Shown here: positions 191 to 33,107 of the stretch, piece after piece
How positions within the stretch are numbered: the stretch's first letter is position 1
How the letters are laid out: the number at the start of each line of letters is the position of its first letter
IMG/VR virus record: IMGVR_UViG_3300047157_000146
DNA: 64,000 nucleotides
Direction: 5' to 3' (one strand)
DNA from: an uncultured virus (IMG/VR IMGVR_UViG_3300047157_000146)
Taxonomy: Duplodnaviria; Heunggongvirae; Uroviricota; Caudoviricetes
Position numbers and translations under genes: made by a program
The notes under the pieces: model-generated
Seen by the model: the letters and a program-made list of their open reading frames with translations, nothing else
The model's database searches: none
Told to the model about the DNA's origin: nothing

Positions 191-1165
191 ATGCCTAAAG
201 ATGTGAATAAGAATACTGCCAGCATCGGTGACGCTGTTATCGAAACCGTTGGTGGAGTTATCAAATTCAAGAAAGATTTTGAGGCTTGGGAGAAAAAATG
301 CAGGGGTGCAAATTCCGGCATGAAGAAGGGTTCTTTATTGTACGCAGTTGAAAACCATGTCACTAGTCCTAGAAGGGGTTCTCCTAATGATGGAAATTCC
401 GGGGCACATACCATGCTTAGAAGAATTAGGAAGATGTTAGTTGACAGGGCTAATGGAATCTTTTACGAAGAAGATGCTGAAACTCTAGAAGCGATTGTTA
501 ATGACCTAGAAGGACTAAAAGACGATGCTAGTTTGAATCCTCAAAATATTGTATTTTCAATTCCTAAGAAGTTTAATGCTAAGACCGGCTCGTATGCTAG
601 AGGTGTAGAAATGGAAAAGGTCTACGGCCACTACCTTTCTACCTTCTACTCTAAGAAATATGGTACTGCCGATAGACAAAAAGATGGGTGGGTTAGTGAT
701 AAAGAAAACACCGCTACTCCGCCAATTTACCAAGCACTTTATGGCGGAAATTTAGTTCCCGTTGGATTGGTTGATGTTTTAAATAAAGCAATTGAAGATA
801 TTGACGACCAAAACTACATCGCTACGATTAGAACTTCTAAACCTGCCAAAACTCTCCAAAGCATTCCGGATTTTAAAACGAGATTGGGTCGTGCTATTAA
901 CTCGGCAAAAACCGAAGAGGGAGTAAGTACTTCTAAAGTTATGAGGCTAATGTCCGGTAAATCATTCAAGGTTCCACCTACAGGCAAGGCACAAAAGATG
1001 CTATCTAGATACATGAAAGTTCCCGACTTAGGAGGAACCATTACTGAATTCACAATCGAGTTGACTCCGGCTAAGACTCGTAAATTGATTAAAGATTACA
1101 TGGGTTCTAACATGAGAGTAAAGGTTAGTCCGATTATTAAAAGTTGGAAGGAAGTGTTGCTATGA
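191..1165 (+). CDS. Hypothetical protein (324 aa), ends in SWKEVLL motif
   Basis: Long ORF; C-terminus IIKSWKEVLL resembles the leader shared by downstream genes; stop overlaps next ATG (ATGA). Confidence 0.6.
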   Translation: MPKDVNKNTASIGDAVIETVGGVIKFKKDFEAWEKKCRGANSGMKKGSLLYAVENHVTSPRRGSPNDGNSGAHTMLRRIRKMLVDRANGIFYEEDAETLEAIVNDLEGLKDDASLNPQNIVFSIPKKFNAKTGSYARGVEMEKVYGHYLSTFYSKKYGTADRQKDGWVSDKENTATPPIYQALYGGNLVPVGLVDVLNKAIEDIDDQNYIATIRTSKPAKTLQSIPDFKTRLGRAINSAKTEEGVSTSKVMRLMSGKSFKVPPTGKAQKMLSRYMKVPDLGGTITEFTIELTPAKTRKLIKDYMGSNMRVKVSPIIKSWKEVLL

Positions 1166-1593
1166 CATGGAAAAGTATATTGAAAAAGGACAAAATAGAG
1201 AAAGCACCATTTGGTAGATTTAAAAGGGATAAAACTCCTGCTGAACCTAAACTTACTGGTAATCAACAGAATGCTATTGAACTTGCTAAACAAAGAATGC
1301 ATCATATAGTTACTCAATTTAAAAATGACCCTGAGTTTCAAAAAGCAGGAAAATTTGCTATTAAAGTAAATACTCAAGATATACCAAAAGGCACAGATGG
1401 AAGCGACGGATATGGAAAAAAGAGAGGGTTGGTATATGATTTGAACCATTATGAAGGTAAGTTTGATGCTAATTTTATCGCAACTCATGGCATTCCCGAA
1501 TTAGAAAAATTAGGCTTTAAAGTTGAAAGAATGGGAGATATGATTCAAGCCTCAAAAGGCGACTCTAATGCTCAAAGAAAATTTGGAATATAA
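1162..1593 (+). CDS. Hypothetical cassette protein with MTWKSILK leader
   Basis: ATG 1162 overlaps upstream TGA; shared leader motif. Confidence 0.65.
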   Translation: MTWKSILKKDKIEKAPFGRFKRDKTPAEPKLTGNQQNAIELAKQRMHHIVTQFKNDPEFQKAGKFAIKVNTQDIPKGTDGSDGYGKKRGLVYDLNHYEGKFDANFIATHGIPELEKLGFKVERMGDMIQASKGDSNAQRKFGI

Positions 1594-1594
1594 A

Positions 1595-1885: not shown

Positions 1886-2117
1886 TATACTAAAAGAAAT
1901 GACTCTAGATGAAATAGAGGAAATCGTTGGAAAGACGGGAAGTTTAGATGAACTGATTGAAATGATTGAAAAGAAGTTCGCAGTGAAGACTAAGATGATT
2001 TCAAGTTCTTCCTCTTCTCCTATGATTGGATTCTCCATACCTATCTATGTTTCACTAGAGATGGTTGGAAATAAGACCGAAGAATTTGAAATTATTAGTA
2101 CAGGTGTGCAGAAATGA
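1872..2117 (+). CDS. Hypothetical cassette protein with MTWEDILK leader
   Basis: AGGTGA RBS, ATG 1872; shared leader. Confidence 0.65.
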   Translation: MTWEDILKEMTLDEIEEIVGKTGSLDELIEMIEKKFAVKTKMISSSSSSPMIGFSIPIYVSLEMVGNKTEEFEIISTGVQK

Positions 2118-2893
2118 GTTGGAAATATATACTAAAAAGAGTTGACTACAACGACTTAGATGATGGTAGTAAAAGCCGAATTGCACATGCCCTAACCGGA
2201 GATGAAGTATATTTTGAATTGACTGATTTATACGGGGATTTTCCTCTTTACGGTGTAGAATCTATGGATGATTTACCTAAAGGAATGGGTTTCCCTAAAC
2301 ACTTTAAATTATATTCCGAAGGTGATATGGAAATATCTGAAGAGCAAGGAGAATACCCATCTCTTTACACAAACATTAGCGTCTATGTTAAAAATCCTAA
2401 CGACAAAAAAGAATCATATTATTTGGGTCATTTTAAGGAAGAACAAAACATTGCAGATTTAGAGCATATTCTAAGAGATAATCAAGATTTGGCTACTCTT
2501 CAAGAACTAATGTTAGTTCCGGATTTCAAGTTTGCTTCATGGAAGAATACATTTATGGATGCAGACTACAACAAACTAGTTGCCTATCTAAAAGAAACTA
2601 ACAAATGGGAAAAGATTAGCCACATCGAAGATAAAATGATGAAACTTCCCAAAGTCAGTCACAGTAAAGAAGTTGATAACTGGCTAGAGGAAGCAGAAGA
2701 TTATGCTAGTCAAAAGTTTGAACAGTCTTATTCTAGAGATGATGAATCGTCTATAGGAACGGCTCAAGAGTTTTACAAACTTCTAGAATATTTGAGAACA
2801 AATAAGGAAACTTCGTGGAACGAAAGTGATTTGAAAAGAAAATTCCCTACGGCTATGTTGATTGTTTCGGAAACTTTAGGCGGACTACCATAA
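2114..2893 (+). CDS. Hypothetical acidic cassette protein with MSWKYILK leader
   Basis: 259-aa ORF, ATGA overlap, shared leader. Confidence 0.65.
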   Translation: MSWKYILKRVDYNDLDDGSKSRIAHALTGDEVYFELTDLYGDFPLYGVESMDDLPKGMGFPKHFKLYSEGDMEISEEQGEYPSLYTNISVYVKNPNDKKESYYLGHFKEEQNIADLEHILRDNQDLATLQELMLVPDFKFASWKNTFMDADYNKLVAYLKETNKWEKISHIEDKMMKLPKVSHSKEVDNWLEEAEDYASQKFEQSYSRDDESSIGTAQEFYKLLEYLRTNKETSWNESDLKRKFPTAMLIVSETLGGLP

Positions 2894-2903
2894 GGTGATT
2901 ACA

Positions 2904-3567
2904 ATGAGAAGAAAGAGTTGTGCCTTTTGTCAACACAGTGATGTTGATTCCATGGAGGCCGACTTAGAATCCCTTACTATTACTCCCGATGAATTAGATG
3001 CAAGGAACAACTGGAGAAGCGGAACTGCGGCCCAACATCAAAGAAATCACATGGGAGAATATGTGCAACAGCAGTAATCCAAAGTGTGCAAGTTATGTGT
3101 AGACCCAATGAGGGAAGACACTATGAGAAGGCAATTACAAGGGTAATATCACAAGTGAGGTCATTTCTTCCGCTTGGACCTCTCTAAAACACAGGTGCAA
3201 CGCCACATGTTAAGCACCACTTTACAGCCCATTGGTACAGCAATCTGCGGCGGCTATGATAGCGAAAAAGGAAGTAAATGAGGTTGATTTGCTATCAAAT
3301 AACATTCAATTGCTAGATGATAAATTCACCGAGACTTGTTCATTAGATATGATTTAGATGCTAAGAGAGATTGATAGTCTTACTAAGTTCGCAAGAGAAG
3401 TTCGGGAGTCTTTGAAAGTACCTGATGGAGTTCAAAGGAAAACTTGTCCACAAGCGACAAGATACAATTATTGTCGCACAGATGCAGGTTGTTCAAGAAG
3501 TGTTAGCACAGAACAATCCGGAGATTTGGCTTGATATTAAAAGAAAATGCAGGAGAGATTACAATGA
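2904..3567 (+). CDS. Frameshifted CxxC/HTH-containing protein, possibly terminase small subunit (indels probably assembly errors)
   Basis: Starts MRRKSCAFCQH; continues across frames (SALDLSKTQVQRH; KGKLVHKRQDTIIVAQMQVVQEVLAQNNPEIWLDIK) and ends KMQERLQ*. TerS call is weak, from position and HTH-like character only. Confidence 0.4.
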
Positions 3568-3929
3568 GTTGGAAAAAAATAGTTAAAAGAAAAAGCAAAA
3601 AACTTAATGTCGAAGATAGTAATATTTTTAATAAGTTTGTAAAAGACTTAACAGATGGTTTAATTGATAGAGAATTACAAGACCATTTAAGCAGAACAAC
3701 TTCCGACGACCCGCAATATAAAAATCACGAAATTGCTCTCAAAGAAGTTTTGTATGATGATTTATCTGACAATATTGCAGACAGATTAGCAGACGCTATT
3801 GAAACAGTAGTTTTCAAAGAAGGAAGAATAGATTATGATGATAATGCCTCATCATCGGGCATACTCGTTTTAATTGAAGCAATAGATAAAAATGAGAAAG
3901 AATTAGAATCTAAAAATTTAGAATGGTGA
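3564..3929 (+). CDS. Cassette 1, hypothetical (MSWKKIVK leader)
   Basis: ATG inside repeat copy 1. Confidence 0.7.
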   Translation: MSWKKIVKRKSKKLNVEDSNIFNKFVKDLTDGLIDRELQDHLSRTTSDDPQYKNHEIALKEVLYDDLSDNIADRLADAIETVVFKEGRIDYDDNASSSGILVLIEAIDKNEKELESKNLEW

Positions 3930-3942
3930 AGGAGAGATTACA

Positions 3943-4347
3943 ATGAGTTGGAAAAAAATATTGAAAGCATACAAATTCGGAGAGGACATTCCTTTTATTT
4001 ATGTCATTCCTGCCTTTCCCTTTGAAACAGGCGGAACTTTTGTTGATAAAGCAAAAGACCCTAAATATCAAGAACAGTATGAGTTTCTTAAAGAAACCTT
4101 TAAAATTACAGGAGAAGAAATGCTTGACATTGAAGGTGATTTAATGAGAGTGGCAACATTTGCTTTACACTTTGGAGAAAAGTATAAAGGAACATTTTGT
4201 ATGAAGCATAATTATGGCCCTATTGATACTTGGTATGATTGTGGAAAATGCTTAAAGGAATCTAAGAATGGTGAAAGAGATAGCATAGACTTAGAACACT
4301 CTAGGCTAACGGCTAAACAAGCATTTGATAAGTTTAGAACAAACTAG
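3943..4347 (+). CDS. Cassette 2, hypothetical with Cys cluster (C..CGKC) (MSWKKILK leader)
   Basis: ATG inside repeat copy 2. Confidence 0.7.
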   Translation: MSWKKILKAYKFGEDIPFIYVIPAFPFETGGTFVDKAKDPKYQEQYEFLKETFKITGEEMLDIEGDLMRVATFALHFGEKYKGTFCMKHNYGPIDTWYDCGKCLKESKNGERDSIDLEHSRLTAKQAFDKFRTN

Positions 4348-4358
4348 GAGAGATTACA

Positions 4359-4676
4359 ATGAGTTGGGAAGACATATTGAAAAATGCTTGGTATGTTAGA
4401 GATGGAGATGCCCCTTTGCACGACCATGTTCACGAACTACTTTTCTTTATGGCTTACAATGAAGACCCTAAATTAAAACAAGCAGGTGAGGCTTTATTGA
4501 ATAAATTTGATGAATACTATGAAAGGGTAGAGGATAAAGATAAGTTAAATGACCTTTACTCTCCCGAATTTTTTAGTTTTCAAAGCAACTTAAAGAAACT
4601 CGCAAAGGCAGTTACTTCAAAGATGGGATTAAGAGAACAGTATTTGCATTTGATTGAAGCAAAGAGATTGATGTAG
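4359..4676 (+). CDS. Cassette 3, hypothetical helical protein (MSWEDILK leader)
   Basis: ATG inside repeat copy 3. Confidence 0.7.
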   Translation: MSWEDILKNAWYVRDGDAPLHDHVHELLFFMAYNEDPKLKQAGEALLNKFDEYYERVEDKDKLNDLYSPEFFSFQSNLKKLAKAVTSKMGLREQYLHLIEAKRLM

Positions 4677-4687
4677 GAGAGATTACA

Positions 4688-4936
4688 ATGAGTTGGAAAG
4701 ACCTAGTTAAGGGAGAGAAAGAATACTCATTCTATCTCGGACAAATTGAAAAGATAGAAAAAATGCTAGAAAGACTGTATGAAGATATAGAAAAATCCGC
4801 TATTGAAATGAATAAAAAAACAGGCTTACCAATAGAACAGGCAAGAAACATAATTAAAAATGTGCAAGAAGGCACTATTGATGAAATAGAAAAAACACTT
4901 GAAGAATTTAAACAAAAATTAGAAAGGTCATTCTAG
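4688..4936 (+). CDS. Cassette 4, coiled-coil hypothetical (MSWKDLVK leader)
   Basis: ATG inside repeat copy 4. Confidence 0.7.
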   Translation: MSWKDLVKGEKEYSFYLGQIEKIEKMLERLYEDIEKSAIEMNKKTGLPIEQARNIIKNVQEGTIDEIEKTLEEFKQKLERSF

Positions 4937-4947
4937 GAGAGATTATA

Positions 4948-5208
4948 ATGAGTTGGGAAGATATTATTAAAAGGCCAAGTGAAGAGGAAGTGAGAAGTGA
5001 TGCTCAACGAAACGCAGATGAATTAAACAAGCCCGTTTACTTATTTCAAAGTGCATTAAATAGTCAGTGGTTGTTTTATGACGAGCCGCCTAAAGACAAT
5101 ATTAAATATGAAACAATTTATCCTACTAATCCTACTGTTAGAATAGAAGAGGGTGCAAAATTCTCAGAGGCGTTTCGAGAAACGGAAGGAATGGACACTA
5201 GTAAGTAA
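4948..5208 (+). CDS. Cassette 5, hypothetical (MSWEDIIK leader)
   Basis: ATG inside repeat copy 5. Confidence 0.7.
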   Translation: MSWEDIIKRPSEEEVRSDAQRNADELNKPVYLFQSALNSQWLFYDEPPKDNIKYETIYPTNPTVRIEEGAKFSEAFRETEGMDTSK

Positions 5209-5222
5209 AAGGAGAGGTTACA

Positions 5223-5705
5223 ATTAGTTGGCAAAGTATTTTGAAAGCCCCATATTCTGTTGGTGGAACAGAAACCTCTTTTTTATATCAAGGAAGCCAA
5301 TTAGAAGAAGATACAGGTTATTGGACTCCTTATTATAATCAAGCAGTTGTTTATGCAGTTTATGGTTCAGAAGCAAATATAAAAAAACCCATGAAAAATG
5401 TGGGAAAACCTACCATAAAACAAGCAAAAGAAACTAAAGAAAATATTGATTTGAAAGATGACCCCGAAAAAACAATGGCGGGTATGGGTAAGTTAGATTA
5501 TACTTTAGTTTCCGATAAAGTAGTCAAAGACGCAATAGATGAATTAATTGGAGAATTAGAGTTTATTGGTTACGATGATTTTGAAAGTAATGGAGTTAAT
5601 TATGCTTCACCCGAACAGTTTAATCAAATAATGGAAACTACTGCACAGTTCTATTCAAACGAAGAAAGAATACAACACGCTAAGAAAATGCAGGAGAGAA
5701 TATAA
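5223..5705 (+). CDS. Cassette 6, hypothetical; leader (I)SWQSILK with ATT in place of ATG
   Basis: Repeat copy 6 reads ATT AGT TGG CAA AGT ATT TTG AAA, in frame with ORF 5241..5705. Confidence 0.55.
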   Translation: MSWQSILKAPYSVGGTETSFLYQGSQLEEDTGYWTPYYNQAVVYAVYGSEANIKKPMKNVGKPTIKQAKETKENIDLKDDPEKTMAGMGKLDYTLVSDKVVKDAIDELIGELEFIGYDDFESNGVNYASPEQFNQIMETTAQFYSNEERIQHAKKMQERI

Positions 5706-5866
5706 TGAGTTGGAAAAGTGTTCTCAAAAGACAAACCAAACTCCCTAAAGAACTTACAGAAGGCGCTACCGTATCTACAATTCCAGCAGAAGAGTGGGGA
5801 AATGAACCCAAGAAAACCCCACCGTCGAAGGAAGATGCTACAGCCCGTCAGAAAAAGTTAGATTGA
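5705..5866 (+). CDS. Cassette 7, 53-aa hypothetical (MSWKSVLKRQTKL...), absent from ORF track
   Basis: Hand-translated from ATG in repeat copy 7 to TGA 5864-5866. Confidence 0.6.
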   Translation: MSWKSVLKRQTKLPKELTEGATVSTIPAEEWGNEPKKTPPSKEDATARQKKLD

Positions 5867-10323: not shown

Positions 10324-10677
10324 ATGAGTTGGAAAGAGATATTAAAGTTTGAAACTAAAAAAACTCTACTACAACGATATGAAGATTTAAAAATAGTAAT
10401 TATTGAAGGAATTGAAAAATTCGGTGGGACTTTTGGAAGTGAAGAAGAACCAAAAACTATAGCAGGTAGGCTCGCCTCGATTAAAAAAATACTAGATGAA
10501 GAAGATTATGAGGGGACAAAAGATGAATTATTTTCCCAAATGTATAAGCATATTTCAAAATTAGAAGATAAATTTTATTATTGGTCCATTGATGAGAGTA
10601 TTGACCTTAGACAGTCGCTAGCCAATTTATTTTTGGCGTATAAAAGAAAAATTATCTTCATAAAAGAACAGGAATGA
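10324..10677 (+). CDS. Hypothetical with MSWKEILK leader
   Basis: AGGTGA RBS, ATG 10324, shared leader. Confidence 0.65.
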   Translation: MSWKEILKFETKKTLLQRYEDLKIVIIEGIEKFGGTFGSEEEPKTIAGRLASIKKILDEEDYEGTKDELFSQMYKHISKLEDKFYYWSIDESIDLRQSLANLFLAYKRKIIFIKEQE

Positions 10678-13741: not shown

Positions 13742-13861
13742 TTGGAATACTGTACCAAATGTTATACATGCGATGTTATAGATTTAAGACCATTTGGATA
13801 CTGCAAAGAATGTTGGGAGGTGAAAGGAAATGACTTGGCAAGAGATTCTCAAGAAAGATAG
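13742..13861 (+). CDS. 39-aa zinc-finger peptide (MEYCTKCYTC...YCKECW)
   Basis: Hand-translated; TTG start after AGGTGA; two CxxC motifs. Confidence 0.5.
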   Translation: MEYCTKCYTCDVIDLRPFGYCKECWEVKGNDLARDSQER

Positions 13862-14066
13862 TAGAAGCAAAAGGAAAGTCCCTAAGCATACCTACAAGGC
13901 CCCCAAAGGAGTCTATAGCAATCCCAGTCTTAGAGAGAAAATACACAGAAGACTATGGGCCAAGAAAACTCACGGTACTGGAAAATACAAATGGTCTGCT
14001 AGAAAATCTCAAGAGTTGAATAGACTTTACCAAAAGGAAGGTGGTGGCTTTGTCAACAAGAAGTAG
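13830..14066 (+). CDS. Small basic protein, DUF5872-like N-half, MTWQEILK leader
   Basis: YSNPSLREKI...KWSARKSQELNRLYQKEGGGF matches remembered family pattern. Confidence 0.6.
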   Translation: MTWQEILKKDSRSKRKVPKHTYKAPKGVYSNPSLREKIHRRLWAKKTHGTGKYKWSARKSQELNRLYQKEGGGFVNKK

Positions 14067-14313
14067 TTGGAAAGATGTTTTGAAGGCTTTAACAGAAGCA
14101 CAGAAAGACATGGTTGAGTGGAACAATCAAGATTGGGACAACCTTACTACAGAAGGTGGAAGGTATGGTCCTAAAACCGTAAGGGATTCCCTTACTCCCG
14201 AACAAAAAAGGCGAGAGAGTGCTAAGAAAAGAGCCGGTACTAGAAAAGGGAAACAACATGTTCCTAGAACAAAGGCTGGAAAGAAAGCCTACAAAAAAGT
14301 AGAAGGTAGATAA
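14050..14313 (+). CDS. Small basic protein, DUF5872-like C-half, SSWKDVLK leader
   Basis: QKDMVEWNNQDW...GRYGPK...LTPEQK...KKRAG..KGKQHVP; probable TTG start after GGTGG. Confidence 0.55.
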   Translation: MSTRSSWKDVLKALTEAQKDMVEWNNQDWDNLTTEGGRYGPKTVRDSLTPEQKRRESAKKRAGTRKGKQHVPRTKAGKKAYKKVEGR

Positions 14314-14314
14314 T

Positions 14315-14716
14315 ATGACTTGGAAAGACATACTAAAGGCACACTGCGGAACAGGAACAGAAAAGATGGGTAAGCCATGCAACTGTGAAGAATGTGTAAA
14401 TAAGAAATTGACACCTAAACAAAGTAAGCATTTAGATAGAAACAAAGACGGTAGAATTAGCCGTGAAGATTTTGATTTGTTAAATAAAGAAGTAAAGACT
14501 GATAAGCAAATAGAAAAAGAAATACTTGCTGAAATTGAAAAACAAGGTGGTGCTTTGGGTATGAAAAATCTCAAAAGTATTACTGACCGTAAAAATCTCA
14601 TAAGGGTTCTTAACGCTTTAGTTAGAAGAGGAACTGTTATTCATCATAAACATGGAGATTTATACACACATGAACCAAAAAAAAGCAGTAAAAGAAGGGG
14701 GCCATTTACTGCATGA
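14315..14716 (+). CDS. Basic protein with EF-hand-like loop and wHTH, MTWKDILK leader
   Basis: LDRNKDGRISREDF (DxDxDG-type loop), CNCEEC, C-terminal wHTH-like segment. Confidence 0.6.
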   Translation: MTWKDILKAHCGTGTEKMGKPCNCEECVNKKLTPKQSKHLDRNKDGRISREDFDLLNKEVKTDKQIEKEILAEIEKQGGALGMKNLKSITDRKNLIRVLNALVRRGTVIHHKHGDLYTHEPKKSSKRRGPFTA

Positions 14717-15471
14717 GTTGGCATATCATTCTAAAGAATCTAGTTTGTCCAAGAGCAACTCAAGATTTGAAACTCAATACTAAGAATAGGGATAGGGCAG
14801 TAAAAGAAAAGCACATCCAATACGGTCCTCTCAATCTAAGCGACGAAAAGTATTGGGAAGAATACGCTAAGAAGTGGAATACTACTGCTGATGTTGCTAA
14901 GGAATCTAATTGTAGTAATTGCATTGCATTTGACATATCTCCAAGAATGGATGAGTGTATGCCACTAAATACAGATGAAGACGGTCGATTAGGCTACTGT
15001 TGGATGCACGATTTCAAATGTCATTCTGCAAGAACTTGCTACACTTGGGCTAAGGGCGGTCCAATTGATGATGATAAGACTTCTAAAGAAAACCAACTGA
15101 GGGGAGAGAGAATGAGTTGGGAAGATATTTTGCTGAAAAGAAAACCTAAATCCGGACCAAGAGAAGCGGCCCGTAAAAGAATGAAGGCTAAAGGATTAAG
15201 GGCTTTTAATTCTCCACAAAGGCTAAATGACAATTCTGACAAGTCACATCATGTTATGGCTTCCGAAGGTGGAAAATACAAATATATTAAATTTGGACAA
15301 AAGGGAGTCAAGACAAATCAAACGGCTGGACAACGAAAAGCCTTCAAATCACGACATAAGAAGAACATCAAGCGGGGTAAAATGTCTGCCGCTTATTGGG
15401 CTGATAAAGTAAAGTGGAGTCCTAGTAAAACCAAAGAAAAGAAAAACAAGAAGTGGCGTAAGGGTTCTTGA
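14713..15471 (+). CDS. Two-domain protein: Cys-rich domain plus basic SAAYWADKVKW domain, each with its own MSW leader
   Basis: MSWHIILK at 14713; in-frame MSWEDILLK at 15112 with GGAGAG RBS. Confidence 0.65.
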   Translation: MSWHIILKNLVCPRATQDLKLNTKNRDRAVKEKHIQYGPLNLSDEKYWEEYAKKWNTTADVAKESNCSNCIAFDISPRMDECMPLNTDEDGRLGYCWMHDFKCHSARTCYTWAKGGPIDDDKTSKENQLRGERMSWEDILLKRKPKSGPREAARKRMKAKGLRAFNSPQRLNDNSDKSHHVMASEGGKYKYIKFGQKGVKTNQTAGQRKAFKSRHKKNIKRGKMSAAYWADKVKWSPSKTKEKKNKKWRKGS

Positions 15472-17398: not shown

Positions 17399-19362
17399 TT
17401 TCTTTGCTTCTTTTGAAAGTGGACCTTACCGAATCTGAAAAAGAGAGATTTGAGAAACTAGTAAAAGAGGGCTTAAAAGCGGCTAAGGCTCTCTCTAAGA
17501 ATTTTAAGTTTAAAACTAAAGAAGTTAAGAAACCATATTCACATTCTGTATTGGTCAAACCTAATGACTATGCAAAGCAAGAAGATATTCTTGTGAATGA
17601 TTTGAGAGATACTCTTATTGAAAATAATTTGGATTTGGATTTGGATGATGTATATTTTGATGGACAAGGTAATTTGGATTTGAATAGGGCATATTTTAAT
17701 GCGTTAAATGAGGTTGAAGATACTGATGCTGAAATTTCTTTTCTACTTAGAAAATATACTAAGACTCTAGATGAGGAAGGTAAGAAAGAAGCCAAGATGC
17801 TATTTACACAAAAGGATGGAATAGAAGATTTGAGTAAGGACTTGAAAACACAAGTAGGGGAACTCAATAAGGTAGTAAAGAAAAATCTTGAGATAAGAGT
17901 TGCCGCTTACATCAAACTAATGAAAGAAGAATTAGCCGCCGTTAAAGTAAAAACTAAGGATGAAATTGCCAATCCTTTCTCCGAAAAAGAAGTTGCTAAA
18001 CCGATGAAAAAAGACTCTATTCTAAACTATTACTACAAGAATAAAAAAGAAAATATAGAAGATACATTAGAAACTATAAAGAAACTAATTAGCAAGATTA
18101 AAGTTACTAAAAAAACAGAAAACATTTCCGATAAAGAAATAGCAGATATTGGAATGAAAGAAACCCTATTAAAAAATCTTAGAGATATTTATGACTATCT
18201 TAGTAGGTCTAGAGAGATTAGACCTGTAGGTACTACTAAAGTAGGCGAAAAGGAAGTATCAAATAAAGATACTAATTTAGAAAGACACAAGTTTGATTTA
18301 AACAGATTGTCTAATAACTTATCTAAAACTGTAGTGCAGTTTGACGGAGAAGAAACATTGCTAGATGAAATTAATAAACTAAAGGTGTTGTTAGGCAACC
18401 CTAAAGAATTCTTTGAAAAGGAATTAAAGGTGAAGAAAATGACTTTATCCACCACTACAAAAATAGCCGAGGCTATCAAATATAAAGGAAGTTTGGCAAA
18501 ATATATTAGAGAAACTTTATTAGAACAAGATGAAAACGCTACAAGAAACAGAAATACCAATATTGGAAAACAAATGGAAAAAATATTTGGTAGAGAAGTT
18601 AGAAAAATGCCTAGTAGAATTCGTTTATTTGAGGAAGTAAAGGAAAATTCTAGAAATATTACAAAGAAGGATGTTAAAAACAGTAGGTTTGTAGATTTTC
18701 AATCGAAAAGTAAGGCAATTGAAATTGGGCTTGATTCTACCGAAAAATACAATGAAATGTTTTCTGGGTATAGTGAATTGATAAAAAATGGAAAGGCGAT
18801 TAATGAAGAACTGAATAAGTATGTAGATAAAAGGAGTTTATTTGATTACTTCTTAGACTATGTGGCTTCAAAGGGTTCAAAAGGATATTCTAAATCTAAA
18901 CAAAAAAGAATAAAACAGATAAATAAATTAACTGATGAATTAAAAATAGACAGTTTGAAAAAAATCGCTAAGTTGAAAAAAGAAAGTCCTTTGTTTAAAA
19001 AATATGGAGTGGACAAATTACAAAATCGACTGCTTTCCGATTATGATGCAATAGAAGAGGCCATTGATGAAATGCAAACTAGGGGTATTACTAGTGTAGA
19101 AAGCATGGAAAGGATGGGTGTAGATTTTACTAGTCCGGAAGATATTGTTGATTACTTTATTGGAAAAATTGATTCTACTTATTTCCCAAGAATCCGCCCT
19201 ACCTTTTATCCAATGTCCGAGGGACAAAATAAAAGAATAACTATTTTGATAACTAGAAATATATTAAAAATCATGACAAAGTTAGGAGTAGAGAGCAACT
19301 TTTCCGAAGAAGAAAGAGCAACAATTCTACAAAGATTAGCACAAAATGAGGAGGAAGAATAA
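17392..19362 (+). CDS. Large Lys/Glu-rich coiled-coil hypothetical protein (656 aa)
   Basis: Long ORF in head module. Confidence 0.55.
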   Translation: MVISLLLLKVDLTESEKERFEKLVKEGLKAAKALSKNFKFKTKEVKKPYSHSVLVKPNDYAKQEDILVNDLRDTLIENNLDLDLDDVYFDGQGNLDLNRAYFNALNEVEDTDAEISFLLRKYTKTLDEEGKKEAKMLFTQKDGIEDLSKDLKTQVGELNKVVKKNLEIRVAAYIKLMKEELAAVKVKTKDEIANPFSEKEVAKPMKKDSILNYYYKNKKENIEDTLETIKKLISKIKVTKKTENISDKEIADIGMKETLLKNLRDIYDYLSRSREIRPVGTTKVGEKEVSNKDTNLERHKFDLNRLSNNLSKTVVQFDGEETLLDEINKLKVLLGNPKEFFEKELKVKKMTLSTTTKIAEAIKYKGSLAKYIRETLLEQDENATRNRNTNIGKQMEKIFGREVRKMPSRIRLFEEVKENSRNITKKDVKNSRFVDFQSKSKAIEIGLDSTEKYNEMFSGYSELIKNGKAINEELNKYVDKRSLFDYFLDYVASKGSKGYSKSKQKRIKQINKLTDELKIDSLKKIAKLKKESPLFKKYGVDKLQNRLLSDYDAIEEAIDEMQTRGITSVESMERMGVDFTSPEDIVDYFIGKIDSTYFPRIRPTFYPMSEGQNKRITILITRNILKIMTKLGVESNFSEEERATILQRLAQNEEEE

Positions 19363-19715
19363 TGTGGGAAAGAATACTAAAACAACCTGATATGATAGAA
19401 AAAGAAAACAGTCCAATTTTGGACTCACTAGATGAAAAGAAGAGAAAGCGATTGAAGAAGACTCTACAATCAGCAGAACCAACCGAATACTTTGGCCAAG
19501 ATTTCACTCGAATGGGTGAACTTATTGACATGCTAAGAGAATTAGATTTGGTCAAATCCGATGATAAGATGAAAAAGAAGTTCGACGGTATTGACGAAAG
19601 GAACATTGATATGGTGGCCCTATCTAGCAAACTTCGTAAGGAGTACGAAGTCTTGTATCGCCAACTACGAGAAGTCGTATATCCAAAGAGAAAGGGGGAC
19701 TTGAGAGATGAGTGA
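19362..19715 (+). CDS. Hypothetical with MWERILK leader
   Basis: GAGGAGG RBS; leader variant. Confidence 0.65.
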   Translation: MWERILKQPDMIEKENSPILDSLDEKKRKRLKKTLQSAEPTEYFGQDFTRMGELIDMLRELDLVKSDDKMKKKFDGIDERNIDMVALSSKLRKEYEVLYRQLREVVYPKRKGDLRDE

Positions 19716-19935
19716 AAATAATGAAGACATGCTGATTATTCTAAAGGAATTAGTTGGTAGAATTAAGACTCTAGAACAAGCGGTCTATAACAAAGATAAC
19801 TTACTTATGAAGTCGGGACTTGTCGTTGTTAATGGCCCTACTCCATCTATGTCAAACCAATCTGTGCCGGATGCTGATGCTATCCATAAGATGAGTTGGA
19901 ATGATATTGAAAAGTTCGTAAATGGGAGGAACTGA
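19708..19935 (+). CDS. Small coiled-coil protein ending MSWNDIEK (scaffold-like C-terminus)
   Basis: C-terminus parallels that of the protease/scaffold. Confidence 0.6.
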   Translation: MSENNEDMLIILKELVGRIKTLEQAVYNKDNLLMKSGLVVVNGPTPSMSNQSVPDADAIHKMSWNDIEKFVNGRN

Positions 19936-19936: not shown

Positions 19937-20170
19937 ATGCCGGAAAAAATGACAGAAGAGGAAGCACAAATTAGTCGAGCAATTAGATTGGTCCGTAAAG
20001 CAAAGGAAATTCTTCAAGAAGAAGATAAGAACAGAATGCCTTACGATTCGGAAGAAGATAAAGAAGCGAAAGTGAAGAAACCCAAGGCAGAAAAAGACGA
20101 TACTAAGATTGAGAACAACACAGGTACTCATTCCGGATATGGTCTTGCTGGAGATACTAACGACGCTTGA
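19937..20170 (+). CDS. Small charged hypothetical protein
   Basis: GGAGGA RBS before ATG 19937. Confidence 0.5.
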   Translation: MPEKMTEEEAQISRAIRLVRKAKEILQEEDKNRMPYDSEEDKEAKVKKPKAEKDDTKIENNTGTHSGYGLAGDTNDA

Positions 20171-22665: not shown

Positions 22666-22673
22666 TTAAATAG
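22666..22673 (+). promoter_or_regulatory. Putative TATA box (TTAAATAG) upstream of prohead protease
   Basis: Identical to 15488 octamer; 37 nt upstream of ATG 22703. Confidence 0.45.
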
Positions 22674-22702
22674 TGTATTTGGTACAAGACGGCTTGAGCA
22701 TC

Positions 22703-23881
22703 ATGTCTACGATTATGTCTGCAATGGAGGAGAATGACTTCTCCATCTTGAAGGCATCGAATGATGATTTAATGATTGGCGGCTATGCTTCTATCGAAAT
22801 GGTAGATAAGCAAAATGATTTAATCACTCTCAAAGCCTTAAATGAGGCAGTTAAAAAATTCATGGAACACAATAAGTTCCGCAATGTTATGACTAATCAC
22901 TCCAATGTTCAAGTTGGAGAAGTAGTTGAATCTCATAGAGATAGTAATGGAAAACTATGGAAGACCCAAGTAGATGATGTTGGGTTCTTCGTAGTAATTA
23001 AATTAAGAGATGATATTGAAAAAGCAAAGGAAATAAACCGAGGAATTCGCAAAGGGTCATTGAGGTCTTTTAGCATAGGTGGACAAGCACTACAAAAAGT
23101 GAAGAAACACCACGATGAATTAGGGGAGTATAGTGAGATAAGCAAACTAGAACTCCACGAAGTCACAATATGCGAAAAGGGAATCAACCCCGAAGCGAGG
23201 TTCGACATATTAAAGGAGGACAAAAAAATGAACAAACTAGAAAAAGCATTGGCTGAACTTGACACTCTACTTGAGGAAGTCAATACGCTACGAAAAGAAG
23301 AAGAAGAACCGTCAATGGAGCGAGGCGCACCTCACCCATTGGACGAGAAGATGGAAGAAATGATGGATACTGAGGAAGAGTCTATGGAATACATGGATGA
23401 TGAAAAGAAGGCCACTACTCTTGACGGAAACGACGACACTAACCTTGGTGGAGCAGGTGAACCTATGGAACAAGCCGGGGCACAAGCAAAGAAGGAAGGA
23501 ATGGTTTCTAAGCACTTTGCTAACGACGAGTTTAGAACTCTTAACCTAAGCGTTCCAAACATTGAGAAGGCTTACGAGCAATACCGAGCAGAACAACTTG
23601 AGAAGATGGGACTCGAAACTCTCGAAGAAACCTTCGCTAAGAGATTCGCTTCGGAAGAAACTAACCGAGCAGACATGGTTGCTAAGGCAGAATACGATGC
23701 ACAATCCGAAATCGCACGACTTAACGCAGAGTTCTCCGAACTCCGTAAGTCACTTACAGAAGAAAAGAACACAATTCGCAAGGCTACAGAAGCCGCAACA
23801 ACAACTAAGGTTTTCTCAACAGAAGAGATTGCTGACATGAGTTGGAGCGATATTCATAAGGCCGTTGGCGGAAACATTTGA
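22703..23881 (+). CDS. Prohead protease (HK97-type) fused to C-terminal scaffold
   Basis: IGGYAS, VDKQND, MTNH (His), RSFSIGG (Ser), LHEVTI...NPEA; acidic coiled-coil C-half; directly upstream of MCP. Confidence 0.9.
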   Translation: MSTIMSAMEENDFSILKASNDDLMIGGYASIEMVDKQNDLITLKALNEAVKKFMEHNKFRNVMTNHSNVQVGEVVESHRDSNGKLWKTQVDDVGFFVVIKLRDDIEKAKEINRGIRKGSLRSFSIGGQALQKVKKHHDELGEYSEISKLELHEVTICEKGINPEARFDILKEDKKMNKLEKALAELDTLLEEVNTLRKEEEEPSMERGAPHPLDEKMEEMMDTEEESMEYMDDEKKATTLDGNDDTNLGGAGEPMEQAGAQAKKEGMVSKHFANDEFRTLNLSVPNIEKAYEQYRAEQLEKMGLETLEETFAKRFASEETNRADMVAKAEYDAQSEIARLNAEFSELRKSLTEEKNTIRKATEAATTTKVFSTEEIADMSWSDIHKAVGGNI

Positions 23882-23891: not shown

Positions 23892-25241
23892 ATGGGATAC
23901 ATTAACACAATAAGAGATTTAGAAGCGGCGACATACGGACTACCTGCCTTTGGCGGAAACTCCGTATTGAAACAAGCAGGTGCAGTTCAAGGACTACACA
24001 CTGCACACGACATTGCAGATGCTGGAGCAAGCGGCCTAACCGGTATTGGAACCACAACTGGTTTCTACAACCAACTTTACGGACAGAAAGTTTGGTCAAT
24101 GCTAAACCGAGAAGTAAATGCTCTCGCTATGCTAGCAAAGCGACCTTATACTTCATCCGGTTGGAGAATTCTTAAGAGCCGACCGTTTGGTGGTTCGGAC
24201 TCTAAACTTGCAGTTGATATTACTGGCGATACTACTGGCAGTGGAGTTGTTGGAATTGGTGGCTCTGCGCCACACGCTGACCAAATTGGTGGTGTTCCAG
24301 AAAACGCAGGACTTTCTACTGCGGCTGACGGACTTGGCTCTATGGCCCCAACTTACGCTCAACTCTTTATGAGTCCTAAGACCATTGCACATCAGTTCGA
24401 TATTTCCGAACTCGCAATGGAAATGGCTCAAATTGATGATGGACTCGGTGATATTCGGGCTATTATCCGTGAAGACATGGGTAAGGCACACGCAGAAGCA
24501 CAAAACAAGATGCTCCTTATGCCTCTTGGTGCTTACGGTGAAACTTCGGCTCTAGCAAACATTGAGCGAAACTACACTTCTTTGATGAAGGTTGTTTCAA
24601 GCCGAGCAGAACTTCTTGCTGGTGATTCTACTGTTCTTTGGACTGATGCGGCTAGCGCAACAAACAACCTTGGTAAAATCTTCGGTGATGAGCGACACAG
24701 TGCCGCCTCATTCCTTGATGCAGAAGTTGACTTTAACAGTTCTTACGCCGCATCTTCGGTTCGACCACTAACTCTTACTTTGCTTAACAACATGATTCGC
24801 AACTTGAGAATTGCTGGCGGTTCTCCAAAGGTTATCTTGACTGGATACGATACTATCCAAGCAATTGCAGATTTGCTACAATCTCAAGAGAGATTCATGG
24901 ACCGTAAGGAAATTATTCCTACTCATAACGGTGTTCGTGGTATTAAGGGTGCAGAAGTTGGTTTCCGTGTGGCAACCTACTACGACATTCCATTGATTCC
25001 TGTTAAGGACATGGCATCGACACTCAATGCTTCCGATAGTGGAATTAGCGACTTGTTGTTCTTGGACACTGACCATCTATGGCTCTCTGTTCTTAAGCCG
25101 ACTCAATACTTTGAAGACGGTGTTTCTAACGGAAACCCATTCGGTGTGGGACGACTCGGCAACCAAGCACTTTACCGAACCATTGGTGAAGTTGGTTGTT
25201 CGTTCTTTAAGGGACAAGGCAAGATTACCAATGTGGCTTGA
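23892..25241 (+). CDS. Major capsid protein (HK97 fold)
   Basis: 449 aa after protease; PKTIAHQFDISE, YDIPLIP, LLFLDTDHL, GKITN pattern; biased high-expression codons. Confidence 0.85.
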   Translation: MGYINTIRDLEAATYGLPAFGGNSVLKQAGAVQGLHTAHDIADAGASGLTGIGTTTGFYNQLYGQKVWSMLNREVNALAMLAKRPYTSSGWRILKSRPFGGSDSKLAVDITGDTTGSGVVGIGGSAPHADQIGGVPENAGLSTAADGLGSMAPTYAQLFMSPKTIAHQFDISELAMEMAQIDDGLGDIRAIIREDMGKAHAEAQNKMLLMPLGAYGETSALANIERNYTSLMKVVSSRAELLAGDSTVLWTDAASATNNLGKIFGDERHSAASFLDAEVDFNSSYAASSVRPLTLTLLNNMIRNLRIAGGSPKVILTGYDTIQAIADLLQSQERFMDRKEIIPTHNGVRGIKGAEVGFRVATYYDIPLIPVKDMASTLNASDSGISDLLFLDTDHLWLSVLKPTQYFEDGVSNGNPFGVGRLGNQALYRTIGEVGCSFFKGQGKITNVA

Positions 25242-27247: not shown

Positions 27248-27919
27248 GTGATTAGTATGTCTGTTCTAGCCGGTTTTGCTGTGGTTTGTATTGAGGCTAC
27301 AGTTGCCTTTTATAAGAAAGTCCATGCAATAAATTTTGGTATTTATGGTGCAACTATGGTAGGTAAAACTACCTTACATCATCAACTAAGAACAAGAGGG
27401 GAAGTTCCCGAAATAAGAGAAAGAACAGTTGGTAGACAAAGGGCTAGCCGTAAAACAATAAAATTAGATGGAGATACTCACACACTAAAAACGGCTGATA
27501 TGGGCGGTGAGGCAATCTATTGGAGAGAATGGATGCAAGATATGAAGAGTAGAAAGGTAAAATATGTTATCTTTGTAATCGACCATAGACATTTAGATTC
27601 TCCATCAAATTTAGACCATCAACTTGCATGGAAGTTTTTAGTTGATGCTATTTGTAGCAGAAATTGGCCCAATGGTAAAAAGAAAAAGAATACAGATTAT
27701 CCTCTAGCCGTTGGTATTTGGGCTAACAAATATGACATTTGGGGAGATAAATACAAAGAAGAAGTAGATATTTCTAATCATTCTATTTTCGCTCCATTTA
27801 AATACGGGATGCAACAGTTAAACGATAGGGGAATACCAACTTACAAGTATATCGTTTCCGCTAAATCACAGCCGGAAATGGTCTATAGAGGCGTTACTAC
27901 AATGATAAAGGATTACTGA
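27248..27919 (+). CDS. Arf/Ras-like small GTPase with hydrophobic N-terminus
   Basis: G1 GATMVGKT, G2 T, G3 DMGG, G4 NKYD, G5 SAK. Confidence 0.85.
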   Translation: MISMSVLAGFAVVCIEATVAFYKKVHAINFGIYGATMVGKTTLHHQLRTRGEVPEIRERTVGRQRASRKTIKLDGDTHTLKTADMGGEAIYWREWMQDMKSRKVKYVIFVIDHRHLDSPSNLDHQLAWKFLVDAICSRNWPNGKKKKNTDYPLAVGIWANKYDIWGDKYKEEVDISNHSIFAPFKYGMQQLNDRGIPTYKYIVSAKSQPEMVYRGVTTMIKDY

Positions 27920-27923: not shown

Positions 27924-28328
27924 ATGTGGCAAGATATACTAAAGCAAAATCCCATTTCTAATATAGTTATTAGAGGGAATAGTGTGACTGCTATATACCT
28001 AGACCCTAAAAGCAAAGAAAAATTAAAAATGAATGTTAATATTCATGAAGATTCTTTAGACGGTAATATTGTAGATAAAGAAGGAGTTCAATTAACAAGA
28101 GCCTTTGCCGAAAAAATAGACGATGATGTTTTTCAAGCAAGAGATGTTAGTACAAAAACTGAATTTATGAGAAGAGGATATGCTGAAAACCTATATCATT
28201 TGATTGCCTATGCTTTAAGCAACCAAAACTATGATTTTGTTGGAGATATTGGACAAAGCGGGGAAGCAGATAATATGTGGAATAAAAATTCAACTTATGG
28301 CTCATGGGATATTCCTGAATATATGTGA
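27924..28328 (+). CDS. GNAT-like protein with MWQDILK leader
   Basis: RRGYAENLY (acetyl-CoA-binding-like) and QSGEADNMW. Confidence 0.5.
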   Translation: MWQDILKQNPISNIVIRGNSVTAIYLDPKSKEKLKMNVNIHEDSLDGNIVDKEGVQLTRAFAEKIDDDVFQARDVSTKTEFMRRGYAENLYHLIAYALSNQNYDFVGDIGQSGEADNMWNKNSTYGSWDIPEYM

Positions 28329-29643: not shown

Positions 29644-29655
29644 AGGTGATTTGCA

Positions 29656-31290: not shown

Positions 31291-32594
31291 TGCCCGTAGC
31301 ATCCTCCCCCAGTGACTATACCTCAATTAACCCAAACTATGCTACAGGTCAAGGTTTCTATACAGATATTGGAGCAGTATCGGATTTACTACAGGTGACT
31401 CCATTTACTTCCGGTACTAATCCATCAGCCGCTCAAGTCGGCTCAATCATTAAGAGAATAGAAGGGATGGTTGATGAGAAAATTAACCGTTCTTATCGAC
31501 CTATTATTTGGAAGAATGAGTTCAAGGACTTTGAATTTACCCGCCATCCTATTATGTCTTATTACGGAGGATATGTAGGATTCGTACAACTACAACAGAT
31601 GAAGATTAGAAAAATTGTAAGTCTAAGAGTTTGGGAAGGAAACGCCTATCGAGAGTTGGCTTCGGCTCAAGGCTCGATTACTCTTCTAGAAAATTTTAGA
31701 GATATTCATTCTCTTATTTTCCAACTACCTAACAGTGGGGTTTCTTTTGAACTGTTAGCAGAAAACGATGTTTCCGCTTTAGCAAACGATGAGTTTTGTA
31801 CTACCTTCGGAATAAAGACCACTAATAATGAAATTGTTGATTTGATTAACGAAAAGTTTCCCTCGAACACCTCTCAATTTACAGGAGCAACTGCTTCAAA
31901 GGAACTATCATCTAGTAATCTCAATATTTCCGATTTCTTCTTCTCGCAGAAAGACGACCAAGATGGTACTAAGGTCTTAATTTCATCTCTACTATCCGGT
32001 GATGATGGAGCAGGTTGTTCACTAAAGGCTACTATTCAACAGTCCTGTACTACTAGTAATACAAGCACTAGTTTAACCGTAGCCGATTCTAGTAAATTAG
32101 CAGTAGATATGGAAGTCACAGGAACTAACATTCCTTCTTCTACTACTATTTCTTCTATTGATACTTCAACTACTGTCACTCTTTCTAAAGCCGCTACGGG
32201 TTCTGCATCAAGCACACTAACTTTTACCACTACCAATGAAATCCCTACAGTCTGTTCTATTGTCGCTTTTACTGACAAAGAAGATATGAAGCGTTTAGGA
32301 GACTTTTGGATGATGAGCGACGATGGAAGAATCTTCTTTTTGAAGAAGTATCCTTATCATAATAAGAACTCAATCATTGTTTCTTATGTTGCTGGTGATG
32401 GAAGAGTACCTTCTACAGTTCACGAAGCCACTACCAAATTAGTTGCGGCAGAAATTCTACGACATGACGACCAAACAATAATGATTGCTGAAACCGGAGC
32501 AAACATATCAGCGAAAGAAAAGTACGATTTACTTCGTGCAGAAGGGATGGCTCTTATTGATGGTAAGAAAGACTTAGTGTATATGTTGGATTGA
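31290..32594 (+). CDS. Head-tail adaptor-like protein with inserted beta module
   Basis: YTDIGAVSDLL...IIKRIEGMVD...IIVSYVAG...VPSTVHEATTKLVA typical of gp6/gp15-like connectors. Confidence 0.6.
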   Translation: MPVASSPSDYTSINPNYATGQGFYTDIGAVSDLLQVTPFTSGTNPSAAQVGSIIKRIEGMVDEKINRSYRPIIWKNEFKDFEFTRHPIMSYYGGYVGFVQLQQMKIRKIVSLRVWEGNAYRELASAQGSITLLENFRDIHSLIFQLPNSGVSFELLAENDVSALANDEFCTTFGIKTTNNEIVDLINEKFPSNTSQFTGATASKELSSSNLNISDFFFSQKDDQDGTKVLISSLLSGDDGAGCSLKATIQQSCTTSNTSTSLTVADSSKLAVDMEVTGTNIPSSTTISSIDTSTTVTLSKAATGSASSTLTFTTTNEIPTVCSIVAFTDKEDMKRLGDFWMMSDDGRIFFLKKYPYHNKNSIIVSYVAGDGRVPSTVHEATTKLVAAEILRHDDQTIMIAETGANISAKEKYDLLRAEGMALIDGKKDLVYMLD

Positions 32595-33107
32595 TATGTG
32601 GAAAAAAATATTAAAAAATAACAGTGGTGGTAAAACCCACATTCCTTATCACACTAAAGTAGAATTTATGAATGGTTTGTATCGGGAACTTGTTGATACA
32701 ATAGAAAGAAAGGAAGGACTTGAGGGTTTTGAGTTCAGCAATGGAATGATTTATTTTCCTAATTACATATTGAGTTTTAACCCAAATGTTGGTCGTCATA
32801 ATGACGACTTTATATCAAAACCATTTAAAGAAATACAAATAACATTAGATGTAGATTGGTATGATTTGTGGTATAGAGGGTTTGAAGACGAAATAAATGA
32901 AATTGCTGATAATTTTGGCGAAGAATACAGATTAAAAGCAGAAGACCAAGGCGTTTATCCTGTCTATGAATACAACGCAGGTTCTCACAATAAAGAAAAC
33001 GGTACAATTAGTGTGTTTTCAAAAACCTCTAATTTATTCATTGAGTCCTTGATTAAAAACATTCATAAAAAAATAGAAGTTAAATTTGACGGAAGGGATT
33101 GATATGT
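32588..33107 (+). repeat. 12-bp direct repeat GGATTGATATGT (32588-32599, 33096-33107)
   Basis: Exact match; each copy contains upstream TGA and downstream ATG. Confidence 0.75.
32596..33102 (+). CDS. Inserted hypothetical gene with MWKKILK leader
   Basis: Flanked by 12-bp direct repeats. Confidence 0.6.
   Translation: MWKKILKNNSGGKTHIPYHTKVEFMNGLYRELVDTIERKEGLEGFEFSNGMIYFPNYILSFNPNVGRHNDDFISKPFKEIQITLDVDWYDLWYRGFEDEINEIADNFGEEYRLKAEDQGVYPVYEYNAGSHNKENGTISVFSKTSNLFIESLIKNIHKKIEVKFDGRD

Follow-up and report, generated by a model that had tools for sequence, protein, structure and literature searches.

A short tryptophan-bearing peptide at the N-terminus of about twenty late proteins of a magrovirus-like archaeal virus, a candidate capsid-docking tag

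Why would some twenty genes of a single virus, unrelated to one another over the rest of their length, begin with the same short peptide? The question is raised by a 64,000-nucleotide (nt) stretch of DNA from an uncultured member of the Caudoviricetes (IMG/VR record IMGVR_UViG_3300047157_000146), which was analysed whole and is called the window below. In surface seawater, magroviruses count as one of the most abundant groups of archaeal viruses, and the function of most of their genes is unknown. By gene content, and without a sequence match to a named magrovirus, the source of the window matches a magrovirus-like archaeal tailed virus, because its genes fit the content described for magroviruses, the viruses of Marine Group II archaea, in the available text of two reports (PMC5434244, PMC10160649). 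An initial annotation had placed a peptide of the form M(S/T)WxxILK at the start of about 20 genes and a similar peptide at the end of three proteins, one of them the scaffold, and had proposed that it addresses cargo to the capsid. All 20 N-terminal positions and all three C-terminal copies were recovered where they had been placed (Table 1). This peptide, the tag, is a distinct element that is maintained as a peptide, is modular, is confined to the capsid strand and partly resembles the scaffold tail; from these properties we infer docking to capsid or scaffold, encapsidation, cleavage and delivery into the host.

The tag is far more frequent than its composition would predict. A search of the six-frame translation of the window with the pattern M.?W..[ILV][ILVM]K gave 17 matches, 7, 4 and 6 in the three plus-strand frames and 0, 0 and 0 in the minus-strand frames. 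Since only 0.19 +/- 0.46 matches (maximum 2) were expected from 300 residue shuffles, and 0.20 from 100 triplet shuffles, chance does not explain the tags. A second pattern, M[ST]?W..[ILV][ILVMH]K, matched 18 times, again always on the plus strand: at 16 starts of open reading frames (ORFs), at the scaffold C-terminus (23837) and at one spurious, out-of-frame position (25231). It had been claimed that the tags keep to the morphogenesis arm and that no ORF of the replication arm starts with one. Both points were borne out: the minus-strand arm (50220-64000) is without any match, and the tags lie on the capsid strand only, in the window and, bar one pattern match, in its relatives as well.

The relatives extend this strand bias. 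In five genomes, 71 pattern matches lay on the capsid strand and 1 on the other, and 67 of 279 ORFs on the capsid strand started with a tag, compared to 1 of 247 on the opposite strand (Fisher p 2e-19). In each of four complete or near-complete relatives, 11-16 ORFs of 40 codons or more are tagged, without exception on the capsid strand; the four contribute one minus-strand pattern match in total, and 1 of the 12 matches in one of them (G001) is internal to the capsid protein. Position 2 of the tag may also be N, K, D, G or I in relatives, and a more distant complete relative, whose capsid protein is 64% identical, carries tags too. Across 80 related loci (955 kb) all 86 occurrences of the strict motif fell on the capsid strand, and 77 of them were followed by at least 40 codons. 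When the strict form (M-S/T-W-K/E-D-I-L-K, 24 nt) was searched more widely, at least 133 stretches in IMG/VR contained it, many on contigs of about 88-99 kb. A scan of one genome per species from 185,579 bacterial and archaeal species (596 Gb) returned 13 isolated matches, all in assorted bacteria and none in archaea, a number that by rough estimate is at chance level over 596 Gb. Judged by this distribution, the tag is viral and not a host signal.

Selection acts on the tag as a peptide. At 16 ORF starts, all on the plus strand, it reads M-(S/T)-W-x-x-(I/L/V)-(I/L/V)-K or M-W-x-x-I-L-K, while 4 of the 20 copies deviate: 1607 (MTWKDEIKK), 5223 (ATT start), 14062 (no ATG) and 15112 (internal). 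A logo of 109 distinct N-termini gave M / S,T / W / K,E,Q / D,E,S / I / L / K, and conservation stopped abruptly at the Lys, the position after it being essentially random. Conservation at the DNA level alone, which had been named at the outset as an outcome that would refute the addressing proposal, was not what we found, as the synonymous codons of Leu, Ile and Lys vary. All six Leu codons are used in the tag (CTT.28, CTA.24, TTA.23, TTG.15, CTC.08, CTG.02), Ile is written ATT (.49) or ATA (.41), and Lys AAA (.78) or AAG (.22). The region upstream of the tags holds a generic purine-rich ribosome-binding tract and nothing further. Such a Shine-Dalgarno (SD)-like tract lies at -18 to -4 before 18 of the 20 tags, so that the tag ATG is likely the true start even where an in-frame extension exists.

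The proteins behind the tag are otherwise unrelated, as had been proposed: in an all-against-all BLASTP of the 20 sequences stripped of the tag, the best E value was 0.016. They span 53-259 amino acids (aa) and isoelectric points (pI) of 4.5-11.3. None scored above a curated cut-off in Pfam, PHROGs or NCBIfam; the PHROGs found were families of unknown function only, three of them different (phrog_17747, phrog_14910, phrog_7595), and the ESM Atlas returned viral hypothetical clusters only. That the tag is a portable add-on to unrelated families is borne out by two families that occur untagged in marine bacteriophages. The core of the 15112-15471 protein shares 69% identity with CRP-13 gp69, from a Roseobacter phage, and 54% with a protein of a Vibrio phage; these two counterparts start 13 residues later and are untagged. 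The 13830-14066 protein is 43% identical to gp44 of pelagiphage HTVC115P, which is without the first 14 residues. Matches (E < 1e-4) in four complete relatives were obtained for 7 of the 20 tagged proteins, and the tag was kept in every match, in one family as the stretched version MTWDF..(E)FILK. Among the untagged window proteins queried, 12 of 16 were matched in the same relatives, including TerL, the product of ORF 12117 and head and tail proteins, and 0 of these matches were tagged. Matches being few for the tagged proteins while the untagged ones are conserved, the tagged set represents the variable, accessory part of the capsid-strand genes. A Trp-less look-alike was seen in the matches of ORF 7868 in G003 and G004, which begin MSMSD/EIIK or MSMSEVIK. 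The highest 19-residue hydropathy over the 20 tagged proteins was 1.22, with no membrane-like segment. A secretion or membrane signal peptide was considered and rejected, as there is no hydrophobic core of some 10-20 residues close to the N-terminus and the tag is charged and amphipathic. An AlphaFold2 model of the tagged protein 14713-15111 (8-row alignment) had a mean predicted local distance difference test score (pLDDT) of 37.5, too poor to use. As a separate observation, the small basic tagged proteins (13830-15471; also L101, L102 and L103) have close homologues, up to 69% identical, in phages of Roseobacter, Vibrio, cyanobacteria and Pelagibacter, which suggests gene exchange between an archaeal virus and bacteriophages of the sea.

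A Trp peptide in the register of the tag also ends head-assembly proteins, although the likeness is partial. The protease-scaffold of the window ends MSWSDIHKAVGGNI, with its tail at 23837-23860 (MSWSDIHK). Scaffold ends were sought in 81 sources, 3 of which gave no scaffold ORF; the consensus M-x-W-(S/A/G)-(D/E)-(I/L/V)-(H/N)-(K/R) described 78 of the 78 ends recovered, with W in 78 and M in 77. A small helical protein encoded upstream, which we call the mini-scaffold, ends in a similar way (Table 1). Its relatives in G002-G004 are 80-82 aa long and end M[DE]WSEIHKMVEKVGGQ (M[DE]WSDIHK, M[DE]WSEIHK), and a G001 homologue could be aligned. Position 2 of the mini-scaffold end tracks the scaffold tail of the same genome, being S in the window and D/E in G002-G004. 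The ORF 191 family ends SWKEVLL in the window, KWDEVLRV in G001 and SWQEVIRA in G003. Scored with a log-odds matrix derived from 58 tags, the window scaffold tail reached 9.3 bits (tag median 21.5) and ranked 21st among 133,266 internal 7-mers, many of those ranked above it being real tags read through from upstream. The proposal that tag and scaffold C-terminus are the same helix thus holds in part: the register is shared and the likeness is present in the lineage of the window, but it is weak in sister lineages and is not accompanied by co-variation.

Cleavage after the Lys of the tag is plausible from the sequence pattern. The HK97 protease cuts after Lys, and in herpesvirus scaffolds a maturation site frees the capsid-binding tail. 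About 30 residues before the scaffold end, the motif I-(L/I/R/A)-K-(A/S) is nearly invariant, and by analogy cleavage there would free the scaffold Trp tail. The N-terminus of the capsid protein carries a conserved GGN-x-(V/L/I/M)-LK-QAG with an invariant L-K-Q at residues 26-28. The boundary Lys of the tag, the pre-tail I-x-K and the capsid L-K-Q all persist in a relative that is 54-64% identical (G006). The RIIK hook of phage 80alpha, discussed below, terminates an amphipathic helix and inserts into the capsid protein, and I-L-K could therefore belong to the docking surface itself. Two further candidates for autocleavage, FSILK before the protease domain and the invariant FDILK after it, were rejected, since in a BLASTP alignment at 29% identity their counterparts in the prohead protease of HVTV-1 are LPVFK and FGVV. 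Structure prediction did not discriminate: a complex of the capsid protein (29 rows) with the tagged protein 14713-15111 (8 rows) scored 0.00 twice, which speaks neither for nor against binding, and the AlphaFold2 model of the capsid protein (29-row alignment) had a mean pLDDT of 34.4, too poor to use. No meaningful match to a PDB sequence was obtained for the capsid profile or for the protease-scaffold. We also noted that the capsid protein itself contains tag-like GWRILK (residues 90-95; 24159-24176) and LWLSVLK (residues 396-402; 25077-25097), both largely invariant among 29 relatives.

The explanation that we prefer, without going so far as to call it probable, is a capsid-docking tag on a fast-changing set of cargo, comparable to the capsid targeting sequence (CTS) of phage T4 or to the scaffold tail of 80alpha. 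The 7-8 residues M-(x)-W-x-(D/E/S)-I-L-K can fold as a short amphipathic helix that places W, I and L on the same side. Fused N-terminally to a changing set of small soluble late proteins, and present in a C-terminal version on a few, the tag would dock them inside the assembling procapsid, at or near the site of the protease-scaffold and mini-scaffold tails, with the major capsid protein as the presumed target. Proteins docked in this way would be packaged and could leave with the DNA, and the prohead protease may clip the tag after its Lys.

Several known systems work along such lines. Encapsulin cargo-loading peptides, which are short and usually C-terminal, dock diverse cargo inside an HK97-fold shell; encapsulins have no portal, terminase or DNA, whereas the window has large terminase, portal and tail genes. 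T4 possesses a handful of tagged internal proteins, as against about 20 tagged genes per magrovirus genome, and its gp21 protease belongs to a Pfam family other than S78. In the protease-scaffold ORF of the window, S78 and S78_2 were the only Pfam matches, and the remaining 200-aa C-terminal part is acidic and coiled. With no homology to a gp21-type protease, the magrovirus arrangement is an analogue of the T4 system and not a member of it. The T4 CTS is described, in the available text, as the sole conserved part of diverse internal proteins, which it loads into the scaffolding core (PMC3012670). Like the CTS of IPI-III and Alt, which gp21 removes (PMC3012670, PMC9024508), the magrovirus tag is short and N-terminal, and the proteins that bear it, a diverse and fast-changing set, have no other conserved part. 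The two are also alike in that the magrovirus genome encodes a prohead protease and a scaffold, and in the loading for delivery with the DNA that is proposed here. They differ in that there is no sequence relation, the virus is archaeal, the protease is of the S78 type and related C-terminal copies exist, including that of the scaffold itself; and loading and cleavage, established in T4, are putative for the magrovirus tag.

A second parallel is phage 80alpha, where the scaffold gp46 and the unrelated SaPI1 protein CpmB have the same C-terminal helix-and-hook, with an RIIK motif; it binds the capsid protein at the N-arm and in the cleft that separates the A and P domains (PMC5644958). The magrovirus protease-scaffold and a 75-82-aa helical protein likewise end in the same short peptide, and RIIK recalls the ILK ending. 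There are, however, two carriers in 80alpha, both C-terminal, compared to about 20 N-terminal carriers in the magrovirus. In phage P1, according to the accessible text of PMC9024508, the N-terminal signal of DarB is enough to send this anti-restriction protein into the capsid; no consensus is reported there among Dar N-termini, while that of the magrovirus tag is extreme. The giant phages SPN3US, phiKZ and 201phi2-1 have head-internal proteins with N-terminal propeptides ending in one prohead protease motif (PMC10052503, available text). Those propeptides measure 20-254 residues and have only the cleavage motif in common, in contrast to the uniform 8-residue magrovirus tag. The tag is not homologous to the T4 CTS, the P1 DarB signal or the 80alpha/CpmB tail, which are its closest working analogues.

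A number of observations weigh against capsid docking as set out above. The sister-lineage scaffold tails DWSDIHK, SWADLNR and TWDDVHS score about 0 bits on the tag matrix (ranks 166-753 of 133,266), and we saw no co-variation of the tags with scaffold-tail variants, the tags staying W-x-x-I-L-K. Some 20 kinds of cargo, about one-fifth of the genes, is a far larger load than the handful of tagged internal proteins in T4. The tagged ORF at 10324 occupies the position expected for the small terminase, which is no virion protein. The codon of Ser-2 is AGT in 90% of tags versus 21% in the background, a bias that indicates some DNA-level constraint or shared descent at that codon. With regard to cleavage, FSILK and FDILK are edge strands of the S78 fold, so that their conservation does not require cutting, and the excess of internal ILK on the capsid strand is slight (z 1.0-2.6 over five genomes), in a count that is partly contaminated by tags with in-frame upstream extensions. 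A more far-reaching version, which we regard as possible yet doubtful, is a genome-wide address code: the tag would send about one-fifth of the proteome into the capsid, where the protease would clip it, so that a rapidly renewed arsenal of small effectors, some of them taken over from marine bacteriophages, would be delivered with the DNA into Poseidoniales.

The tag could instead be a docking peptide for another partner, such as the portal, the terminase, a viral or host chaperone or chaperonin, or a host factor, gathering late accessory proteins without encapsidating them. Selection on the peptide, its sharp boundary and its amphipathic W/I/L face would suit any docking helix; copies at both N- and C-termini, the merely partial likeness to the scaffold tail and the tagged ORF in the small-terminase position fit such a partner as well. 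Yet the only carriers of a related peptide with a recognisable role are the head protease-scaffold and the scaffold-like protein, the tagged genes are co-oriented with the head genes and interspersed among them, and no candidate partner was identified; we think this unlikely. We rate it as less likely still that the tag is a removable propeptide or an N-terminal stability signal, recognised by a viral or host protease or acting as a degron, that times the turnover or activity of late proteins without targeting them. Capsid and scaffold proteins of 80alpha have a common N-terminal leader that is removed by a host protease, and an end of conservation exactly at the Lys, the near-invariant I-(L/I/R)-K-(A/S) before the scaffold end and the invariant LK-Q near the N-terminus of the capsid protein would all be expected of a cleaved leader. 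A cleavage site, however, leaves unexplained the invariant Trp and the copies at protein C-termini (SWKEVLL-stop), the apparent sites flanking the protease domain are fold elements, and the absence of the strict tag from the archaeal genomes scanned gives no sign of host mimicry.

Two further explanations seem to us very improbable. The unit under selection could be the nucleic acid, either a translation-initiation enhancer or a recombination cassette made up of the SD sequence and the first codons, with the peptide a by-product. The Ser-2 codon bias agrees with this, as does a lean of codons 4-5 to AAA, GAA or GAT, and five adjacent tagged genes (3564-4948) are preceded by a near-identical block of 21-25 nt (window 3551-4971), GGAGAGATTACA or ..TATA, followed by ATG AGT TGG, which could be a recombination cassette for gene turnover. 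But the six Leu codons occur at near-background frequencies, the third positions of Ile and Lys vary, nothing beyond a generic purine-rich SD lies upstream, and the same peptide is found at C-termini in other sequence contexts. Equally remote, in our judgement, is a single old paralogous family whose bodies have diverged beyond recognition and of which the tag would be the slowest-evolving remnant. A tandem arrangement and the many small helical ORFans would be in keeping with such descent, whereas two or more of the tagged proteins come from separate families whose marine bacteriophage members are untagged, three different PHROG families are assigned within the tagged set, and length and pI spread widely.

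T4, P1 and 80alpha already illustrate the principle of a terminal capsid-targeting peptide; the novelty lies in an archaeal virus and in a uniform 8-residue tag on about one-fifth of the genes. Within the literature available to us, which did not extend to supplements and subscription journals, we found no description of the tag motif in searches on the motif, which led to frog peptides and other unrelated subjects, on magroviruses and on capsid targeting in archaeal viruses. In the accessible text of the magrovirus papers the term 'N-terminal' is absent, 'motif' refers to HTH and 'scaffold' to Tara Oceans sequence scaffolds. A single tag on about one-fifth of magrovirus genes gives genes that lack a function one common, testable role, and indicates proteins possibly injected into Poseidoniales cells, for example as candidates for counter-defence or takeover. 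Should cargo loading by the tag prove real, the range of capsid-targeting sequences would widen from T4 and P1 to include archaeal viruses, and no known loading tag of an HK97-type shell would be shorter or more uniform. If the genome-wide address code also holds, archaeal viruses would have their first known capsid-targeting system, one more extensive than that of any other virus; the virion would deliver proteins plus DNA into Poseidoniales cells, and the code would offer a ready 8-residue tag for loading foreign proteins into HK97-type shells.

Table 1. Tagged ORFs, C-terminal copies and head genes of the window (all coordinates are window positions)
Position	Strand	Feature	Remarks
1139..1162	+	C-terminal copy KSWKEVLL	End of ORF 191-1165 (324 aa); from sequence
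1162..1593	+	Tagged ORF, MTWKSILK	143 aa
1607..1870	+	Tagged ORF, deviant MTWKDEIKK	87 aa
1872..2117	+	Tagged ORF, MTWEDILK	81 aa
2114..2893	+	Tagged ORF, MSWKYILK	259 aa
3564..3929	+	Tagged ORF, MSWKKIVK	121 aa; first of a tandem run with near-identical GGAGAGATTACA leader
3943..4347	+	Tagged ORF, MSWKKILK	134 aa
4359..4676	+	Tagged ORF, MSWEDILK	105 aa
4688..4936	+	Tagged ORF, MSWKDLVK	82 aa
4948..5208	+	Tagged ORF, MSWEDIIK	86 aa
5223..5705	+	Tagged ORF, (ATT)SWQSILK	160 aa; full SD upstream
5705..5866	+	Tagged ORF, MSWKSVLK	53 aa
10324..10677	+	Tagged ORF, MSWKEILK	117 aa; directly upstream of large terminase
10674-12107	+	Large terminase	phrog_38, E 1.6e-58
13830..14066	+	Tagged ORF, MTWQEILK	78 aa; basic; core homologous to untagged HTVC115P gp44
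14041..14313	+	Basic ORF, SSWKDVLK at 14062 without ATG	Nearest start GTG at 14041
14315..14716	+	Tagged ORF, MTWKDILK	133 aa; Cys-rich
14713..15111	+	Tagged ORF, MSWHIILK	133 aa in relatives; reads on into next tagged gene in window
15112..15471	+	Tagged unit, MSWEDILLK	119 aa; very basic; core 69% identical to CRP-13 gp69
15527-17174	+	Portal, in pieces	Pfam/PHROG searches
19362..19715	+	Tagged ORF, MWERILK	117 aa; more distant matches start MTWDF..(E)FILK
19708..19935	+	Helical mini-scaffold ending MSWNDIEKFVNGRN	75 aa; tail 19891-19914 (MSWNDIEK)
20167-22665	+	ATP-dependent DNA ligase	832 aa; Pfam E 3e-28
22703..23881	+	Prohead protease (S78) fused to scaffold	ORF 22673-23881; Pfam Peptidase_S78, E 1.9e-10
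23892-25241	+	Major capsid protein, HK97-type	PHROG major head protein, E 4.5e-21
27924..28328	+	Tagged ORF, MWQDILK	134 aa
32596..33102	+	Tagged ORF, MWKKILK	168 aa

Some of the deviant copies can be compared with relatives. The G003 match of ORF 14041 begins MSWRDILK. A 252-aa ORF at 14713-15471 represents two tagged genes read through, the second unit having its own SD-like tract and the first half being a separate 133-aa gene in the closer relatives L001, L005, L009 and L012. An Ile codon replaces ATG in two tagged ORFs, at 5223 in the window (ATT) and at 737 in G001 (oriented), each of them preceded by a good SD or by a stop codon; this leaves a non-canonical start or a sequence error as the explanation.

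Frame breaks also affect conserved genes of the window. Relatives have an intact portal of 546 aa, with which the portal gene of the window (15533-17168) is colinear, but here the frame switches at least four times (frames 2, 1, 3, 1, 3), a sign of assembly indels or of a copy in decay. A conserved Cys-rich gene at 2889-3547 occupies at least three frames in the window and is intact in G002-G004 (218 aa), where it ends AQNNPE(I/V)WL(D/E)IKKEMQERLQ; in relatives it directly precedes the run of tagged genes. Because of such frameshifts, the boundaries of single ORFs in the window are not fully reliable.

The head and tail genes lie on the plus strand from 1 to about 49.7 kb, and the minus strand from 50.2 to 64 kb encodes a family B DNA polymerase in two ORFs, an RFC-like clamp loader, an ERCC4 nuclease and a PD-(D/E)XK nuclease. 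Megablast of window positions 1-25000 against the INPHARED phage collection gave no match, and the nearest capsid proteins among deposited phage records are those of haloarchaeal tailed viruses (about 24% identity). Close relatives are present in IMG/VR, with at least 600 contigs at 72-96% identity, several of them 90-99 kb long with direct terminal repeats. The DNA polymerase gene (56031-59757, minus strand) is split into ORFs of 590 and 308 aa with two small ORFs between them, Pfam positions 41-196 falling in the first and 219-354 in the second. The DNA ligase has long N- and C-terminal extensions, and its gene lies within the head module, flanked by the portal region on one side and the protease on the other. 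Finally, a 223-aa protein encoded at 27248-27919, among head-completion genes and adjoining a tagged ORF, gave weak matches to small GTPases (Ras/Roc/MMR_HSR1), all under the Pfam cut-offs.

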